Shown piece after piece: positions 5,671 to 18,208 of a stretch of 64,000 bases of DNA. How positions within the stretch are numbered: the stretch's first letter is position 1; every line of letters begins with the position of its first letter. The position numbers were made by a program, and so were the translations under genes. Source of the DNA: Frankiaceae bacterium (GTDB lineage: Bacteria; Actinomycetota; Actinomycetes; Mycobacteriales; SCTD01); contig JAENVS010000011.1 of NCBI GenBank assembly GCA_016650445.1, positions 177,099 through 241,098 on the forward strand. Direction: 5' to 3'. A model generated the notes under the pieces. The model was not told the origin of the DNA. It did no database searches and worked only from the letters and a program-made list of their open reading frames with translations.

Positions 5671-6720
5671 GTGAAGACCCTCGACCTCGCACCGCTGCGC
5701 CCCGGTCGCCGGGCCCGCTGGGTCGCCCGGCGTGCGGTGTACGGCGGCGGCGCGACTGGTCTGCTGGCGGCCCTCGGTGCGGGGCTCTTCGCGGCCGAGG
5801 CGAAGCTGGCGCGAAGGACGATCGGCGAGCCGACGGAGCACGCCCCCGACCCGGCTGGGTCGTACGGACGACCGCGACGAGGCGTGCGACCGCTGCGGCT
5901 GGCGATGCTCGGCGACTCGAGCGCGGCCGGTCTGGGCGTCGACGACGCCGCGCAGACCCCCGGTGCCCTGCTCGCCGGCATGCTGGCGCGCGACCTCGAC
6001 CGGCGGGTCGAGCTCGACCTGCAGGCTGTCACGGGTGCGCGGTCCAAGGACCTGGAGATCCAGGCCCAGCGTGTTCTGCGGCACCCGCTCGACGTCGCGG
6101 TCATCCTCATCGGCGCCAACGACGTGACGCACCGCGTGTCACCCGAGGCGGCAGCCCACGCCCTCGGGCGCGCGATCGCGATGCTCCGCGCGACGGACGT
6201 CGAGGTCGTCGTCGGCACCTGCCCCGACCTCGGCAGCGTCAAGCCGTTGATGCAGCCGCTCCGGGCCCTCGCCCGCGTCCGCAGCCGGGCCATGGCACAG
6301 GCCCAGGCCGTGGCCGCGGTCGAGCACGGCGCGCTTGCCGTCTCGCTCGGCAACCTGCTCGGCCCCGAGTTCGCGACCAACCCGGGGATGTGGGGTCCGG
6401 ACCGGTTCCACCCGTCGCCCGAGGGCTACGCCCGCGTGGTCGACGCCCTGCTGCCCAGCGTCCTCGAGGCCCTCGGCGTCGGCGGCACGACGGAGGTCGT
6501 CGGCGACAGCGTGCAGGACCTCGACGTCGCTGCAGCCGTCGCGGCCAGCACCCCGGGACTCGAGGTCGAGACCCTGGAAGGCGGCGAGGGTGCCGCGTCG
6601 GCCGGTCCCGGTCGCCTTGCCCGGTTGCGCCGGCGGGTCCCGATCGTCGGCCGCGGCGCCCCGGCCGGTCCCACCTCCCCCGAGGACCTCGCCTCCGACG
6701 AGGAAACCGACGAGCGTTAG
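5671..6720 (+). CDS. SGNH/GDSL hydrolase family protein
   Basis: LGDSSAAG, GANDV, DRFHPS; start set at GTG 5671. Confidence 0.9.
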   Translation: MKTLDLAPLRPGRRARWVARRAVYGGGATGLLAALGAGLFAAEAKLARRTIGEPTEHAPDPAGSYGRPRRGVRPLRLAMLGDSSAAGLGVDDAAQTPGALLAGMLARDLDRRVELDLQAVTGARSKDLEIQAQRVLRHPLDVAVILIGANDVTHRVSPEAAAHALGRAIAMLRATDVEVVVGTCPDLGSVKPLMQPLRALARVRSRAMAQAQAVAAVEHGALAVSLGNLLGPEFATNPGMWGPDRFHPSPEGYARVVDALLPSVLEALGVGGTTEVVGDSVQDLDVAAAVAASTPGLEVETLEGGEGAASAGPGRLARLRRRVPIVGRGAPAGPTSPEDLASDEETDER

Positions 6721-6755
6721 CGTTCGACCACACAGGACCACACCAGGAGAGCCCG

Positions 6756-7976
6756 ATGCCCGAAGCCGTGATCGTCTCGACCGCCCGCTCCCCGATCGGG
6801 CGCGCCTTCAAGGGCTCGCTCATCGGGTTCCGACCGGACGACCTGGTCGCGACGATCATCTCAGCCGCGCTGGCCAAGGTGCCCAACCTCAAGCCCGAGG
6901 ACATCGACGACCTCATGCTCGGCTGCGGCCTGCCCGGCGGCGAGCAGGGTTACAACATGGGTCGCGTCGTCGCGGTGCGGATGGGTTACGACTTCCTGCC
7001 GGGTACGACGATCACGCGCTACTGCTCGTCGTCGCTGCAGACGACCCGGATGGCGTTCCACGCGATCAAGGCCGGCGAGGGCGACGCGTACATCTCCGCC
7101 GGCGTCGAGATGGTCAGCCGCTTCATCAAGGGCAACAGCGACTCGCTGCCCGAGACCAAGAACGAGTACTTCGCCGAGGCCGAGGCGCGCACCGCGAAAC
7201 TGGCCGAGGGCGGCGCCGATTCCTGGTCCGACCCGCGTGACGGCGGCGACGTCCCCGACGTCTACATGTCGATGGGGCAGACCGCGGAGAACCTCGCGCG
7301 CATCAAGAACGTGTCCCGCCAGGAGATGGACGAGTTCGCGGCCCGCTCCCAGAACCTCGCCGAGAAGGCCATCGCCAACGGCTTCTGGGAGAAGGAGATC
7401 ACTCCTGTCACGACGCCCGAGGGCAACGAGATCAGCGCCGACGACGGTCCGCGACCGGGCGTCACCGTCGAGGGCATGGCGGGTCTCAAGCCGGTCTTCC
7501 GCCCCGACGGTCTCATCACGGCCGGCAACGCGTGCCCGCTCAACGACGGCGCCGCTGCGGTCATCGTCATGAGCGACACCAAGGCGAAGGAGCTCGGGCT
7601 CACGCCGCTGGCTCGTGTGGTGTCCACCGCGGTCACCGGTCTCTCGCCCGAGATCATGGGCTACGGGCCGAAGGAAGCGATCGAGCTCGCGCTCAAGCGC
7701 GCCGGCAAGACCGTCGGCGACATCGACCTGTTCGAGATCAACGAGGCCTTCGCGGCGCAGGTCATCCCGTCGTACAAGGACGCCGGTATCCCGATCGACA
7801 AGCTCAACGTGCACGGCGGCGCCATCGCCGTCGGCCACCCGTTCGGCATGACCGGCGCGCGCATCACCGGCACGCTCATCAACGGGCTGCAGACGCTCGA
7901 CAAGCAATTCGGCGTCGAGTCGATGTGCGTCGGCGGCGGCATGGGCATGGCCATGGTGCTGGAGCGCCTCAGCTAG
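6756..7976 (+). CDS. acetyl-CoA C-acetyltransferase (thiolase)
   Basis: MPEAVIVSTARSPIGRA, RYCSSS, NEAFAAQ, GHPFG, CVGGG; AGGAG RBS. Confidence 0.95.
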   Translation: MPEAVIVSTARSPIGRAFKGSLIGFRPDDLVATIISAALAKVPNLKPEDIDDLMLGCGLPGGEQGYNMGRVVAVRMGYDFLPGTTITRYCSSSLQTTRMAFHAIKAGEGDAYISAGVEMVSRFIKGNSDSLPETKNEYFAEAEARTAKLAEGGADSWSDPRDGGDVPDVYMSMGQTAENLARIKNVSRQEMDEFAARSQNLAEKAIANGFWEKEITPVTTPEGNEISADDGPRPGVTVEGMAGLKPVFRPDGLITAGNACPLNDGAAAVIVMSDTKAKELGLTPLARVVSTAVTGLSPEIMGYGPKEAIELALKRAGKTVGDIDLFEINEAFAAQVIPSYKDAGIPIDKLNVHGGAIAVGHPFGMTGARITGTLINGLQTLDKQFGVESMCVGGGMGMAMVLERLS

Positions 7977-13411: not shown

Positions 13412-14641
13412 GTGACATCGGGGGAAAACCGGGCGACCTACCGCGAAGCACTCGCCGTACCGGAGTTCCGCGCGATCTTCGTGTCGCAGGGGCTCAGCCT
13501 GGTCGGCGATCACGTCGCGCGCATTGCCATCGCCCTGCTCGTCTACGCCCGCACCGGCTCGGCGTTCGCGGCGTCAGCGACGTACGGCTGCTCGTTCCTG
13601 ACCTGGCTCGTCGGCGGACCGGTGCTCTCCGCGCTGGCCGACCGCCACCGCCGGCGCCACATCATGATCGTGACCGACCTCGCCCGGTTTGCGCTCGTGG
13701 CCCTCCTGCTGGTGCCCGAACCGCCGCTCTGGCTCGTGTTCGCCGTGCTGGTCGCGGTGGGCCTGCTGGCCCCGCCGTTCGAGAGCGCGCGCAGCGCCCT
13801 CCTCCCGGATATCGTCACCGGCGAGCTGTACGTCGCAGGCAACTCGCTGATCAACACGACGATCCAAGGGGCCCAGGTCGCCGGGTTCTTCATCGGCGGC
13901 CTGCTCGTCTCGCTGATCTCCGTGCGCGGCGCCCTCGCCCTCGATGCCGCGACCTTCCTCGTCTCGGCGGCCGTCCTGCGCCTGGCCATCGCGGAGCGGC
14001 CCGTGGTGGAGCGTGAGCGCACGAGCCTGATCGGGGACGTCGTCGCTGGGGTCCACTTCGTGCGCGCCGACCCGTACCTGCGGGGGCTGCTGGCCTACGG
14101 CGTGCTGGCCGCCGTCGTCGCGATCGTGCCGGAGGGCCTGGCGGTGGCCGTCGCGGGCGACGACGGCAACGGGGCTCGGACGGCCGGCATCCTGACCGCG
14201 ACGATCCCGCTGGGCTACGTCGTGGCCAGCGCAGTGATCCTTCGTTGGTCGGCCGAGCAGCGGGCTCGCCAGATGCTGCCGCTCACGCTGGTGCTCTGCC
14301 TCCCCCTGCTGCTGACCCCGCTCGTGAGCGGGACCGCCCTGACAGCCGTCCTGTGGCTCGTCGCCGGCGCGGGGACGGCCGTCCAGCTGATCGCGAGCGT
14401 CGCCTACGTGGCCGGGACCGCGCCGGAGTTCCGGGGTCGCGCCTTCGGCCTGGCGGGCACCGCCCTGATGCTGTCGCAGGGGGTGGCCCTCCTGCTGGCG
14501 GGCGCCCTCGCGGACCTGATCGGGCCCCGCAGCGTCGTCGCCGTCGCGGCCGGGCTGGGCCTGCTCGCCCTGGTGGCGATGAGAAGCACGCTTGCGGGTG
14601 CTCAAGGAAATGCCCAGGTACGTCGACGATCGACCGGATGA
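13412..14641 (+). CDS. MFS transporter (efflux/DHA3-like)
   Basis: About 12 hydrophobic segments, LADRHRRRHIMIVTDLAR motif A, EFRGRAFG; stop overlaps next ATG (ATGA). Confidence 0.92.
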   Translation: MTSGENRATYREALAVPEFRAIFVSQGLSLVGDHVARIAIALLVYARTGSAFAASATYGCSFLTWLVGGPVLSALADRHRRRHIMIVTDLARFALVALLLVPEPPLWLVFAVLVAVGLLAPPFESARSALLPDIVTGELYVAGNSLINTTIQGAQVAGFFIGGLLVSLISVRGALALDAATFLVSAAVLRLAIAERPVVERERTSLIGDVVAGVHFVRADPYLRGLLAYGVLAAVVAIVPEGLAVAVAGDDGNGARTAGILTATIPLGYVVASAVILRWSAEQRARQMLPLTLVLCLPLLLTPLVSGTALTAVLWLVAGAGTAVQLIASVAYVAGTAPEFRGRAFGLAGTALMLSQGVALLLAGALADLIGPRSVVAVAAGLGLLALVAMRSTLAGAQGNAQVRRRSTG

Positions 14642-17073
14642 CCGGGGACACGAAGGCACGCAGCGCGACGGCTCGACACGCCGCCGCGCTCGTTTTCTGC
14701 GTGTCCCTGCTCGCGCTCGGGTCCTGGGCCGCGCTGTCCAGCAGCCCCGCGCCGATCACCGCCGCGTTCTCGCTGCCGTGGTGGGTCCTGATCCCGGTGT
14801 ACGCCGTCACGCAGCACTACCCGGTCGACTTCGAGAACCGCCGCGGCACGTACAGCCTGCACCTGACCCAGCTCCCGCTGACGTTCGGGATCGTGCTGGT
14901 CGCGCCGGCGTACCACCTGCTCGCGCGCCTCGTGGGCGTCGCCCTTGACTGCGTCGTGCTGCGCCGCCAGGCGCCGCTGAAGGTCTGCTTCAACCTCGGC
15001 AGCGCGGCGATCGACGTCGGTATCGCCGCCACGGCTGTCGCGCTCATCGGCCACAGCGACCGTCCCGGGCCCTCTCTGTGGGTCGCGCTGCTCGTCAGCG
15101 TCATCGTGACCGAGGTCATCGGGGCGGTCTCGCTGGCGGGTGTCTGGCGACTGATCGGCGTCCCGCTGCAGTCACGGCAGATGTTCGAGCCGCTGGGCTT
15201 CGCCGTCATCGCCAGCGCGACCTTCACCGGCCTGGCCATCGTGGCGGTGTCGGCGATGTACACCGACCGGGCCAGCGTCGCCATCATCGCCGTCCTCGGC
15301 GGTGCCCTTGCTCTGGCCTACCGCGGGCATCGGCGTCTGTTCGCACAGCAGCGGACGACCGAGAAGCTGTACGAGTTCGTCAAGGACCTCGGTCCGGTCT
15401 CGTTCGACTCCGACCGGCTCCCCCCTCTGCTCGACGAGGTGCGGGTCCTTCTCCACGCCCGCCACCTCGACCTGGCCGTACCGAACGACAGCGACGGCTG
15501 GACGCATCACCTGTCCTCCGACGACGACACGAACACCACGGCCGGCGCGGACGCCGACGAGCTGGCTGAGGCCGTCGCCCGGGCCGGCGCCGCTCTCAAG
15601 AGCAGCCCGGGTGACTTCGACCGGATGTCGACGCCGCTCATCGGCGCGCGCAAGCTGGTGGGCATCCTGACTGTGACCGACCGGCTCGGTGACATCCGTC
15701 GCTTCGACATGGGCGACATGCGGCTGCTCGAGACGATCGCGACGGAGCTGACGACGTCGTTCGAGCGCGGCAAGCTGCTGCGCGACCTCGAGCGGTCGGC
15801 CACCACTGACTCGCTGACGGGGTTGGCGAACCTGTCCGAGGTGACCCGCCAGATCAACGCGGCCCTCGACGACGTCGACCTGCTTGTCGCCGCAGTGGCG
15901 GTCGAGTCGTTCCGCGAAGTCAACGACACCCTCGGCCACCAGGTCGGCGACAACCTCCTGCTCGACGTCACCGGCCGGCTACGACGTGCCTGCCCGGACG
16001 CGGTCATCGGTCGCATCGGCGGCGGCCGGTTCGCCGTCGCCGTCCCGGCCAAGTCGGTGGGCTACGACCCGGAGATGTTCGGTCTCGGGATCCGCGCGCA
16101 GGTCGAGGGCACCACGCATCTCGGCGGTGTCGGCACCCACATCCGCCTGTCGGTCGGCGTCGTGCGCGCCCCCGAGCACGGCGCAGAGGCCGCGACACTG
16201 CTCCGGCGTGCCGAGACGGCCATGCACAGCGCGCGCAACGCGCACGGCGGTCCCGTGGTGTGGGAGCCGGCGTACGAAGTCCAGGGCCAGCGGCGGCTCG
16301 CCGTCGTCAGCGCACTTCGCGAGGCGCTGTCGACCGGCGCCATCGGCGTCGCCTTCCAGCCGAAGGTCGACAGCCGCAACGCGGCTCCCGTCGGGGTCGA
16401 GGCACTTGCCCGCTGGACCCACCCCGCACTGGGCGCGATCGGACCGGACGAGTTCATCCCGCTCGCCGAGGCATCCGGATTGATGGGGCTGCTCACCAGC
16501 ACCGTGCTCCGCCAGGCGCTCACCGCCTGCAAGGGCTGGCAGCGCCGGAGCCCGGGCGTCGGCGTCGCCGTCAACGTCAGCGCGACCACCCTGCTCGACG
16601 CCGCGTTCGTGACGCAGGTGGCCGCGATCCTCACCGCGTCGGGAGTCGACCCGGGCCTGCTCACCCTCGAGCTGACCGAAGGCGTCGTGATGGCCGACCC
16701 CGAGCTGGCCTCGGAGCGGATGGGCGAGCTGCGCGCCCTCGGCGTGAAGATCTCCGTCGACGACTTCGGCACGGGGTACTCGTCACTGACCTACCTCAAG
16801 GGCCTGCCGGTCGACGAGGTGAAGATCGACCGCGGGTTCGTGAACGGGCTGGTGCGCGAGCCGGCGGATCGGGCCGTCGTCCGCGCTGTCGTCGACATCG
16901 CGCACACGCTGGGGATCCGCGTCGTCGCGGAGGGTGTCGAGAACGAGGCGCAGCGCCAGGTCCTGCACGACCTCGCCGTCGACGAGCTGCAGGGCTACCT
17001 CTACGCCCGGCCGATGCCGTCGATGGAGATCAACCAGTGGCTCCGCCACAGTGAGCGGTCCGTCCGCCACTAG
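14638..17073 (+). CDS. membrane-bound GAF-GGDEF(degenerate)-EAL c-di-GMP phosphodiesterase
   Basis: Multi-TM N-terminus, GAF-like region, DSLTGLAN..VNDTLGHQVGD with GGGRF in place of GGDEF, intact EALARW, ELTE, DDFGTGYSS, KID, AEGVE, QGY. Confidence 0.92.
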   Translation: MTGDTKARSATARHAAALVFCVSLLALGSWAALSSSPAPITAAFSLPWWVLIPVYAVTQHYPVDFENRRGTYSLHLTQLPLTFGIVLVAPAYHLLARLVGVALDCVVLRRQAPLKVCFNLGSAAIDVGIAATAVALIGHSDRPGPSLWVALLVSVIVTEVIGAVSLAGVWRLIGVPLQSRQMFEPLGFAVIASATFTGLAIVAVSAMYTDRASVAIIAVLGGALALAYRGHRRLFAQQRTTEKLYEFVKDLGPVSFDSDRLPPLLDEVRVLLHARHLDLAVPNDSDGWTHHLSSDDDTNTTAGADADELAEAVARAGAALKSSPGDFDRMSTPLIGARKLVGILTVTDRLGDIRRFDMGDMRLLETIATELTTSFERGKLLRDLERSATTDSLTGLANLSEVTRQINAALDDVDLLVAAVAVESFREVNDTLGHQVGDNLLLDVTGRLRRACPDAVIGRIGGGRFAVAVPAKSVGYDPEMFGLGIRAQVEGTTHLGGVGTHIRLSVGVVRAPEHGAEAATLLRRAETAMHSARNAHGGPVVWEPAYEVQGQRRLAVVSALREALSTGAIGVAFQPKVDSRNAAPVGVEALARWTHPALGAIGPDEFIPLAEASGLMGLLTSTVLRQALTACKGWQRRSPGVGVAVNVSATTLLDAAFVTQVAAILTASGVDPGLLTLELTEGVVMADPELASERMGELRALGVKISVDDFGTGYSSLTYLKGLPVDEVKIDRGFVNGLVREPADRAVVRAVVDIAHTLGIRVVAEGVENEAQRQVLHDLAVDELQGYLYARPMPSMEINQWLRHSERSVRH

Positions 17074-17098
17074 CTCGGCGAACTGCTCCGAACATAGT

Positions 17099-17146
17099 TC
17101 CAGGGGCTGGGAATGGGTGTAGCACCACCCACTCCCAGCCCCTGGA
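17099..17146 (-). terminator. 21-bp stem-loop between converging EAL gene and micro-ORF
   Basis: TCCAGGGGCTGGGAGTGGGTG-GTGCTA-CACCCATTCCCAGCCCCTGGA on minus strand; the single mismatch is a G.U pair only in the minus-strand RNA. Confidence 0.75.
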
Positions 17147-17181
17147 CAGGACTGGGTCGATCGCACGCAGCGATCGAAGTC

Positions 17182-17205
17182 TTAGTTCCAGCCAGCTGCG
17201 CGCAT
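17182..17205 (-). CDS. 7-aa micropeptide MRAAGWN (putative signalling peptide)
   Basis: GGAGG (17213-17217) 7 nt upstream of ATG CGC GCA GCT GGC TGG AAC TAA; TACTCT -10 candidate at 17260-17265; hairpins downstream. Confidence 0.6.
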   Translation of the reverse strand: MRAAGWN

Positions 17206-17422
17206 CGCATTGCCTCCGTTCGGCCTTACCGGACTGAGCCATCCGGCCTAGTGCTACGCAGAGTAGAGAGAGTTTCCAGAGTTGCGCTAGGGAATGGTGA
17301 GAAAAAATAACGGACATGTCGCCCAATTGCCGCAGTTCGAGAGACATTTTGTAGGCCAGATGGCCCTACAGGTCCGCGCCGAGGCAGCCGATGCGAGCAA
17401 TCGGCGAGATGTCCGCCTCCGG

Positions 17423-18208
17423 TCAGGCCAGGGCTGCGACCCGTTTCGCCCGGTTGATGACGTCGTCGAGCATCGCCTCGGTCAGCCGGCCGGTGAAGGT
17501 GTTCTGCTGGCTGACGTGGTAGCAGCCGATCACGGTCGGCCCGCCCTCGACGTTGACCTCCCGGCCGTGCCCGAAGGCGGGGACCCGGCGAGGCACCGCG
17601 GCACCCGTCGCCCGCAGGGCCGTCCACGTCGACGCCCAGCCGAAGCCCCCGAGAACTACGAGCGCACGAACGTACGGCCGCATCAGTGCCAGCTCACGGT
17701 GCAGCCACGGTGCACACGCATCGCGTTCCTGCGTCGTGGGCCGGTTCGCCGGCGGCGCGCACCGGACCGGGAGCGTGATGCGGGTGCCGACGAGCCGCTG
17801 ACCGTCGTACGCCGAGGTCGACGTCGGCTGCGTCGCCAGGCCCGCGCGGTGCAGCGCCGCGAACAGCCAGTCGCCACTGCGGTCACCGGTGAAGATCCGA
17901 CCCGTGCGGTTGCCGCCATGCGCCGCCGGAGCGAGTCCGACCACGACGATCCGCGCCGTGGAATCGCCCCATCCGGTGATCGGCCGACCCCAGTACTCCT
18001 GGTCTGCGAATGCGGCCCGCCTTGTCGCCGCGACCTCCTCGCGCCACGCGACCAGGCGCGGACAGGCTCGGCACACCGACGACCGCGCATCGACGTCCTG
18101 CAGCGTGTCGGCCGACCCGGCGAGGTGCTGCACGTCGGCGGCGTGCCGGGCCACCGGAGTGGCTGACGTCGCGTGGTCGGTCGGGAAACCGGAGCCCGGT
18201 GGGATCAC
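17423..18208 (-). CDS. udgB: uracil-DNA glycosylase family 5
   Basis: CRACPRL, GLAPAAHGGNRTGRIFTGDRSG, RCAPPANRP, YHVSQQNT. Confidence 0.92.
   Translation of the reverse strand: MIPPGSGFPTDHATSATPVARHAADVQHLAGSADTLQDVDARSSVCRACPRLVAWREEVAATRRAAFADQEYWGRPITGWGDSTARIVVVGLAPAAHGGNRTGRIFTGDRSGDWLFAALHRAGLATQPTSTSAYDGQRLVGTRITLPVRCAPPANRPTTQERDACAPWLHRELALMRPYVRALVVLGGFGWASTWTALRATGAAVPRRVPAFGHGREVNVEGGPTVIGCYHVSQQNTFTGRLTEAMLDDVINRAKRVAALA

Follow-up and report, generated by a model that had tools for sequence, protein, structure and literature searches.

A tryptophan-containing seven-codon reading frame and its predicted class-wide family beside membrane GGDEF-EAL genes in Actinobacteria

In a 64,000-nucleotide stretch of DNA from a Frankiaceae bacterium (assembly GCA_016650445.1, contig JAENVS010000011.1, forward-strand positions 177,099 to 241,098; hereafter the window), a seven-codon open reading frame (ORF) at 17182-17205 on the minus strand, ATG CGC GCA GCT GGC TGG AAC TAA, encodes the peptide MRAAGWN. 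Sequence comparison indicates that this micro-ORF belongs to a large, hitherto unannotated family of micro-genes that extends across the class and is tied to a gene for a membrane GGDEF-EAL protein. Its form is that of the family as a whole: a Shine-Dalgarno (SD) sequence followed by M-[R/S/K]-x(2-5)-W-x-stop, 6-9 codons long, beside a membrane GGDEF-EAL gene. An earlier reading of the same DNA from its letters alone (the sequence-only reading) had picked out the micro-ORF as a candidate Trp-containing peptide signal, an interpretation that is partly supported by the present analysis; the class-wide family and its link to the membrane GGDEF-EAL protein are the main point beyond it. The explanation favoured here, with roughly even confidence, is that a real, translated seven-codon gene would supply a peptide that acts in trans on the adjacent GGDEF-EAL enzyme, as its partner or ligand.

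The micro-ORF lies in a 349-bp gap (17074-17422) between two convergent genes, a GGDEF-EAL gene on the plus strand that ends at 17073 and a UDG-superfamily gene on the minus strand that ends at 17423, and it is followed by a large hairpin. With the gap as query, BLAST found matches in 17 of 61 related genomes, the 48-nt hairpin being 84-94% identical in several genera. Scanning the genome collection with a pattern for the hairpin only returned 28 loci, of which 22 have the full hairpin and one is cut at a contig end; the other five (L037, L038, L041, L048 and L049) have no full hairpin, come from other phyla or genera and were set aside as chance matches. The 22 full-hairpin loci, from uncultured genomes labelled Frankiales, Mycobacteriales or Actinomycetota, make up with four further BLAST loci a set of 26. 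Every family locus with sufficient flank has the same gene order, in which the UDG gene is followed by the element and then by the convergent GGDEF-EAL and MFS genes. In the window the SD, GGAGG (17213-17217, minus strand), stands 7 nt before the ATG, and GGAGG, GGGGG or GAGGG is present at the equivalent site in all 26 loci. The frame itself, consisting of SD, ATG, four to six codons, TGG, one further codon and a stop, is retained in 25 of the 26. Its length is 6, 7 or 8 codons, the differences are of whole codons, and TAA, TAG and TGA each serve as the stop in some loci; the peptides include MRAAGWN, MRNISWN, MSAGWN, MKRIHGWP, MRGVIWG and MRKVTWP, and synonymous changes distinguish the micro-ORFs of close relatives. 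Other conserved boxes in these loci are ATGTCCG, CTAGCGC and, just past the UDG stop codon, CCTGTAGGGCC.

Comparison of repeated copies shows that the micro-ORF is selected as a coding sequence, with clear selection on its amino acids. In 32 copies encoding MRGATWG, from five genomes of one genus, codons 3-5 are constant in amino acid; codon 3 occurs as GGC, GGT, GGG and GGA, codon 4 as all four GCN codons and codon 5 as all four ACN codons, and the spacers between the copies have diverged. Altogether 232 distinct copies encoding 125 distinct peptides were collected, a few chance ones included, with a range of 6-10 codons and a modal length of seven (151 of 232 copies). The start, the penultimate Trp and a stop exactly one codon after it are invariant across lineages. 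The usual form is M-R-G-x-x-W-x, position 2 being Arg in 83 of the 125 peptides and position 3 Gly in 53, and the middle and last residues are lineage-specific and fixed within lineages. The last residue is G in 46 of the distinct peptides, N in 12, P in 9, T in 7, L in 7 and others in the rest, and within one array it varies between N, K, A and E. The sequence-only reading had proposed a search of orthologous MFS and EAL loci for a conserved short ORF with synonymous-only variation, and both were found. The motif G-W-[ND] that it had expected to be conserved was not, since only the penultimate Trp and the usual M-R-G start are kept, and nothing was found in support of its processed form AAGWN or AGWN.

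Variants of this plan occur in some lineages. Loci of one family, f49 (L205, L207, L212, L214 and L218), have an in-frame ATG three codons upstream, giving M-P-x-M-R-x-x-x-W-x; the ORF there may be 10 codons long, and Met-Arg need thus not be N-terminal. Another type has two Trp codons. At L144 (G358, 6397-6911, minus strand) five such copies, MRGWDWT, MRSWDWL, MRNWDWY, MRSWDWY and MHTWEWV, stand in tandem upstream of an M24 aminopeptidase-P gene; MRGWDWF and MRGWEWG occur elsewhere, and the type is also present at L120 and L122. Genomes with the two-Trp type gave no match to the GGDEF-EAL partner in the N-terminal search of 401 genomes that is described below.

The reading frame outlives the RNA in which it is embedded, as distant relatives retain the ORF while hairpins and terminator diverge. 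A covariance model of the element matched 42 of 78 family genomes, and a micro-ORF was present in all 18 of the additional or weaker model loci that were inspected, even where the terminator sequence differs. Tandem copies with one SD each were seen, namely MRGNSWN three times, MRSIRWT twice and MRGLIWG five times, the last in an array with a 69-nt period sited between the UDG and GGDEF-EAL genes. At L093 (G066) an ORF of 15 residues starting at ∼128 of the printed stretch, MKTTGGWGFTTGGWG, resembles two units fused in frame. When 401 genomes of the order were searched with a strict pattern (SD, ATG CGN GGN, two codons, TGG, one codon, stop), 58 of them matched, often with 4-10 copies in an array. 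The pattern in reverse, used as a control, matched ∼21 of the 401, with isolated single or paired hits only. Matches at L116 and L131, and those in G234 and G386 far from the partner gene, were rejected as chance or unrelated, and those at L146 and L119 lie inside an ORF and were likewise discarded.

These comparisons bear on the simplest alternative, that there is no gene at all, the hairpins being shared terminators of the convergent genes or a non-coding small RNA, with an SD, ATG and stop aligned by chance. The large hairpin is indeed nearly palindromic and lies 25 nt past the GGDEF-EAL stop codon, so that it could terminate transcription on both strands. Against this, conservation of the ORF extends beyond that of the hairpins, its codons vary in a synonymous-only pattern, its length changes by whole codons, and the T-runs that trail the hairpin are on the strand of the micro-ORF. 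The background is also low: outside the known sites, the 512,744 strand-bases scanned contain just one or two ORFs of 5-10 codons that follow an SD and have Trp in the penultimate position. A chance ORF on a shared terminator is excluded by the comparative data, and the no-gene explanation in general is highly improbable. Conservation of RNA structure alone, which the sequence-only reading had named as the sign of a small RNA, is not what is seen.

Linkage to the GGDEF-EAL gene was assessed from the partner's side, which avoids circularity: the N-terminal 370 residues of the partner were searched in the same 401 genomes and the upstream regions then inspected, the tallies including four genomes flagged as unpublished. 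Outside the window's family, the gene just downstream of the micro-ORF or micro-ORFs encodes a GGDEF-EAL protein of 820-860 residues. In family f17 the micro-ORF stands beside the partner in 39 of 39 genomes, about 100-135 nt upstream, 18 of these having the strict pattern (at 70-130 nt) and 21 variant peptides such as MRSTEWN, MKSHEWL and MSAHEWL. The same neighbourhood was found in 10 of 11 genomes of f14, in all 11 fetched regions of f11 (three further ones were not fetched), where 1-9 copies encode peptides of 6 or 9 residues such as MRLDGNNWG and MSTGWG, in 4 of 5 regions of f7 and in 1 of 3 regions of f8. In other orders of the class 18 of 20 regions have a micro-ORF, 15 co-directional with the partner and three, from one genus, on the opposite strand. 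Upstream regions of paralogues, taken as control, have none (0 of 10), and families without the partner protein gave no strict-pattern match (0 of 46 in f12, 0 of 47 in f5). A comparison of neighbours by Pfam revealed no other neighbour that is conserved across families. The orientation of the pair varies: the two genes converge in the window's family and diverge in one genus, and in the other lineages the micro-ORF is upstream of the partner.

At 34 of the f17 loci a second conserved TAnnnT hexamer is found ∼35 nt past the micro-ORF stop codon and ∼34 nt before the partner's start codon; with this hexamer lying between the two, the partner seems to have its own promoter. Further upstream in f17 (A3 columns ∼50-80, ∼110-140 nt upstream of the micro-ORF) there is a conserved AT-rich inverted-repeat box with the consensus TTGGCTAATGTTGCGCATACCGACATTTAT, which overlaps the −35 region of the micro-ORF promoter and is probably the operator of a regulator.

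GGDEF-EAL genes with no micro-ORF upstream occur in the same genomes. The window's own genome has a second membrane GGDEF-EAL gene of this kind (G000:C35:114110-114931, an 868-aa open frame), which is closer to the query N-terminal domain than the window's gene is, and four other family genomes likewise have such a second gene with no upstream micro-ORF (L187 is among these loci). A different neighbour is seen at L145 (G106, 5893-6035, plus strand), the second locus in that genome, where MRGTDWE, MRITEWD and MHGTDWD are encoded directly upstream of an MFS_1/MFS_3 gene and divergently from a gene for an NB-ARC/TPR protein; the neighbour there may be another kind of partner.

In the window the partner gene (14638-17073, plus strand, convergent with the micro-ORF) encodes a multi-pass membrane protein of ∼812 residues with a GAF-like stretch and Pfam matches to GGDEF and EAL. 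It is preceded by a gene for an MFS transporter (13412-14641, plus strand, Pfam MFS_1), a candidate exporter, whose stop codon overlaps the partner's start as ATGA at 14638-14641. Because this overlap puts the start at 14638, the 942-aa ORF called from TTG 14245 is probably over-extended. The adjacency of MFS and EAL genes is kept in every family locus long enough to show both. Partners of other families have 5-7 segments resembling transmembrane helices in the first ∼230 residues, followed by a GAF-like stretch below threshold, and the window's partner also has transmembrane-like segments. The membrane part of the partner has no Pfam or NCBIfam match, GAF being sub-threshold only; for the sensor region, Atlas leads were all below 0.9 and a profile search of PDB sequences returned nothing significant. 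The window's protein is 31% identical over 756 residues to a micro-ORF-linked protein of another family, and the corresponding proteins of two other families share 42% identity along their whole length. A quick tree places the window's protein together with micro-ORF-linked proteins from another family, at an approximate likelihood-ratio test (aLRT) support of 95; the rows for the G278 paralogue, G170 and G449 in that tree come from wrongly chosen ORFs and have very long branches, and the tree was used for that grouping only. As read by eye, the EAL signature is intact in all three proteins, and the GGDEF motif is intact in the two other families and degenerate in the window's protein, where it reads GGGRF (∼16000-16030, residues ∼460-466 of P0001). 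With a degenerate GGDEF and an intact EAL motif, the window's enzyme is probably a phosphodiesterase only.

The DNA around the micro-ORF has the appearance of a complete small transcription unit. Along the minus strand the gap contains, in order, a hairpin of the UDG side, a conserved box CTAGCGCAAC, the hexamer TACTCT, a 5' hairpin, GGAGG, the ORF from ATG to TAA, an 8-bp hairpin and a 21-bp hairpin. The ORF with its GGAGG at 7-nt spacing, the hexamer, the CCGGA/TCCGG hairpin and both downstream stems are all where the sequence-only reading had placed them, and its view of a complete unit that looks independently transcribed agrees with the conservation in relatives of the −10 box, both hairpins and the terminator. 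The A/T-rich stretch that it had noted upstream is present, but is mostly the T-run of a terminator-like hairpin (17301-17325, minus strand) behind the UDG-family gene (17423-18208), which separates that gene from the micro-ORF unit.

The putative −10 hexamer (17260-17265, minus strand) is of the TAnnnT type, with its T, A and final T invariant in 26 of 26 aligned loci. The box CTAGCGCAAC (17281-17290, minus strand), 15 nt 5' of the hexamer, falls in conserved columns of alignments of 11 and 26 loci and may be a −35 region or the site of a regulator. At the predicted start of the transcript, the 5' hairpin CCGGA-N8-TCCGG (17229-17246, minus strand) is part of the minimum-free-energy fold of the window and of most of the 26 relatives; the RNAalifold consensus retains only a short helix of four pairs near it. 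Hairpin 2, with 8 bp (17157-17177, minus strand), begins 4 nt past the stop codon and was called terminator-like on the plus strand; alignment and folding show a hairpin of other sequence at this position in relatives. The terminator hairpin, with 21 bp (17099-17146, minus strand), is 84-94% identical across genera, with compensatory changes at five stem pairs. A T-run follows it on the micro-ORF strand in most relatives, the window's own tail being only ...AACTATGTTCG. Between the two hairpins, the spacer CCCAGTCC (17149-17156, minus strand) pairs with GGGGCTGGG (17142-17134) at the base of the 5' arm of the terminator. The corresponding spacer of the family, CCCAGYYC, lies directly 5' of the terminator and is complementary to GGGGCUGGG at the same base. 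This helix is paired in 97.6% of 207 cells, with two of its eight pairs changed on both sides, compared with 15-62% for slid controls, and could act as an anti-terminator. Over the 216-nt stretch as a whole the fold has a z-score of −5.6 relative to shuffled sequences, none of 200 shuffles being equally good.

No established RNA family accounts for the element. Searched at permissive thresholds, Rfam gave for the window a best match to Scr6106 at 27.7 bits, compared with a threshold of 52.5, and hence no family; at gathering thresholds the sole match among 12 related loci was tRNA, from a tRNA gene at L103 (13725-13799) at the far end of an over-extended GGDEF-EAL ORF in G036. A tRNA and tmRNA scan of the window found none, and a terminator scan of two array loci was also negative. 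The RNA element has no second copy in the window's own genome, where a relaxed pattern gave one extra match, located within a coding ORF and dismissed as chance.

In the explanation favoured here, a small mRNA of ∼150 nt would comprise the −10 box at its promoter, the 5' hairpin, the strong SD, the ORF, hairpin 2, a possible anti-terminator and a very stable terminator, and the window's unit would be built to make much peptide from a small, stable message. This design resembles that of mccA, the short and abundant message of microcin C, for which a length of seven codons is reported to permit repeated translation (PMC4231749, PMC6495379). The selected product would be the peptide, the level of which would set the turnover of cyclic di-GMP (c-di-GMP) through binding to, or other action on, the adjacent enzyme. 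Trans action is favoured because the adjacency survives changes of orientation, because the partner seems to have its own promoter, and because amplification gives up to ten copies and the peptides, unlike the ribosome, are particular to each lineage. The MFS pump, the gene of which would be translationally coupled to that of the enzyme, is a candidate exporter that would turn the peptide into an extracellular signal. That the peptide is a secreted signal is something we infer from the gene neighbourhood. The fuller proposal, that an unprocessed, directly encoded heptapeptide is produced in large amounts from a dedicated mini-mRNA or from tandem arrays, is exported (through the coupled MFS pump where there is one) and is sensed by the membrane and GAF-like module of the GGDEF-EAL enzyme, with lineage-specific dialects, is put forward tentatively.

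A number of observations weigh against a trans-acting peptide. A cis-acting upstream ORF (uORF) would also have the layout seen in most lineages, with the micro-ORFs 5' of the partner and co-directional with it. The rule that the Trp codon stands one codon before the stop looks like a constraint on translation termination and not like one on a free ligand. Outside the window's family the comparison of neighbours by Pfam found no exporter or processing enzyme conserved with the pair, and an unmodified seven-residue peptide in the cytoplasm would be expected to be short-lived. Generic sigma-70 promoter scans found no promoter at the window or at two array loci, and the promoter calls were based on the conserved TAnnnT hexamers alone. 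The anti-terminator is suggestive only, because few independent substitution events are involved. The public runs with the locus have it on DNA contigs only (labelled permafrost, soil or rhizosphere metagenome), with no RNA run among them, and of the four runs compared, three from one study carry an identical stretch. Finally, at the one family locus without an intact frame, L035 (the same as L009), a 1-nt insertion ∼69 nt upstream of the hairpin breaks the micro-ORF; its close relative L044 encodes an intact MRGNTWG, and the extra base is either an assembly error or the mark of a decayed copy.

The main alternative is a cis-acting uORF. In this reading a ribosome pausing at the single Trp codon, or an effect of the nascent peptide on release at the stop one codon later, would govern whether transcription of the neighbouring GGDEF-EAL gene terminates or reads through, or how stable its mRNA is. 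In the family of the window, where that gene is convergent, transcripts that pass the terminator would run antisense to its 3' end. The strongest point in favour of a uORF is the invariant Trp at a fixed distance from the stop, to which the upstream co-directional placement in most lineages, the lack of conserved accessory genes and the possible terminator/anti-terminator alternative in the window's family can be added. Nascent-peptide regulators are also under amino-acid selection, so that the MRGATWG pattern is compatible with it, and a precedent exists in mccA, where according to PMC4231749 the ribosome on a seven-codon ORF can control a terminator. The unit is nevertheless convergent and self-terminated throughout the window's family and divergent in one genus, and the −10-like hexamer between micro-ORF and partner is conserved at 34 loci. 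Arrays of up to ten copies, each with its own SD, suggest that the dosage of a product matters, the peptides differ among lineages though the target ribosome is conserved, and a single Trp codon beside a c-di-GMP enzyme is ill-suited to the logic of amino-acid attenuation. Cis action is regarded as rather unlikely, but as more probable than the other alternatives.

Known leader and arrest peptides, among them the trp-type attenuators, TnaC and short drug-sensing leaders, resemble the micro-ORF in being short, with a critical Trp near the end, and in being followed by hairpins with a possible terminator/anti-terminator pair. The present family stands apart from them in its lone Trp codon, its multi-copy arrays and the lack of a downstream gene for biosynthesis or resistance; in the window no co-directional gene follows the micro-ORF, and the unit is self-contained and convergent with its partner.

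The pheromone systems of Firmicutes (Rgg/SHP, ComR/ComS-XIP and Rap/Phr) each have a small unannotated peptide gene beside that of the receptor, in varying orientation. Their peptides are lineage-specific and some contain Trp; the precursors of ∼17-40 residues are processed and re-imported to act on cytoplasmic regulators of the TPR type. A trans-acting peptide of the present family would share with these RRNPP/Rgg systems the peptide gene adjoining its partner, the varying orientation and the lineage-specific peptides, some of them with Trp. It is to this logic that the sequence-only reading had appealed. The differences are that 6-9 codons leave no room for a leader, that the partner is a membrane GGDEF-EAL protein, with L145 alone adjoining an NB-ARC/TPR protein, and that the present family is known from its genes alone.

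A further alternative is that the micro-ORF encodes a minimal precursor, comparable to those of microcin C and the biarylitides, from which modification would yield a natural product or cofactor for export by the MFS protein. In microcin C the pump of MFS type is MccC, and the C-terminal Asn of MccA is required for attachment of the nucleotide. The window's peptide happens to end in Asn, and the ORF of about seven codons with a strong SD, the terminator and the adjacent gene for an MFS-type pump are shared with the microcin system. The general layout of a short terminated transcript (here a predicted one), as described for mccA, is matched too. In mccA, upstream sequence and the ribosome modulate the intrinsic terminator of the short transcript, ribosomes loaded on the RNA control that terminator and stabilise the message, and the conserved length of seven codons favours reiterative translation (PMC4231749, PMC6495379). 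The chemistry of microcin C depends on the last residue, whereas here that residue varies freely, 12 of the 125 distinct peptides ending in N. No MccB-type adenylating enzyme is found among the neighbours (a Pfam search of the window and six loci; no whole-genome search was made), and the invariant penultimate Trp, the c-di-GMP enzyme as partner and the tandem arrays set the present family apart, with no sequence relationship to mccA.

The biarylitide precursors, according to PMC13417212 and PMC12951456, are encoded by five-codon, 18-bp genes beside a cytochrome P450 gene, and as gene-encoded peptides of Actinobacteria below the thresholds of gene callers, found only through a conserved neighbour, they offer a second likeness. 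Here the ORFs have 6-10 codons and another aromatic pattern, the neighbour is a signalling and not a tailoring enzyme, and there is no P450 among the neighbours tested. More generally, those neighbours (UDG, GGDEF-EAL, MFS, PIG-L, GT87, MoeA, Ppx/GppA and YkuD) include no modifying enzyme, the remaining neighbour ORFs having no Pfam match, and the sole conserved partner is a signalling enzyme. A modified-peptide precursor is therefore considered very unlikely.

An earlier description of this micro-gene family was found neither in Rfam nor in the literature covered (subscription literature was outside the scope), and it is not among the uORF motifs in the available part of PMC11109978. Genes of 6-9 codons escape annotation, and searches anchored on a conserved neighbour can recover such micro-genes systematically. 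To our knowledge, only a handful of genes of this size encode functional products. In Actinobacteria, c-di-GMP is reported to govern development, and the linkage described here gives a testable candidate controller of these c-di-GMP enzymes, be it a peptide ligand or a translational sensor. If the micro-ORFs act in cis, they would represent a new class of Trp-dependent regulatory uORFs with multi-copy arrays. A secreted peptide would make this a form of peptide signalling that is both new and unusually simple. Were the heptapeptide both exported and sensed, no smaller class of bacterial signalling genes would be known, and peptide signalling between cells, or of a cell to itself, would be coupled to c-di-GMP across many orders of Actinobacteria.

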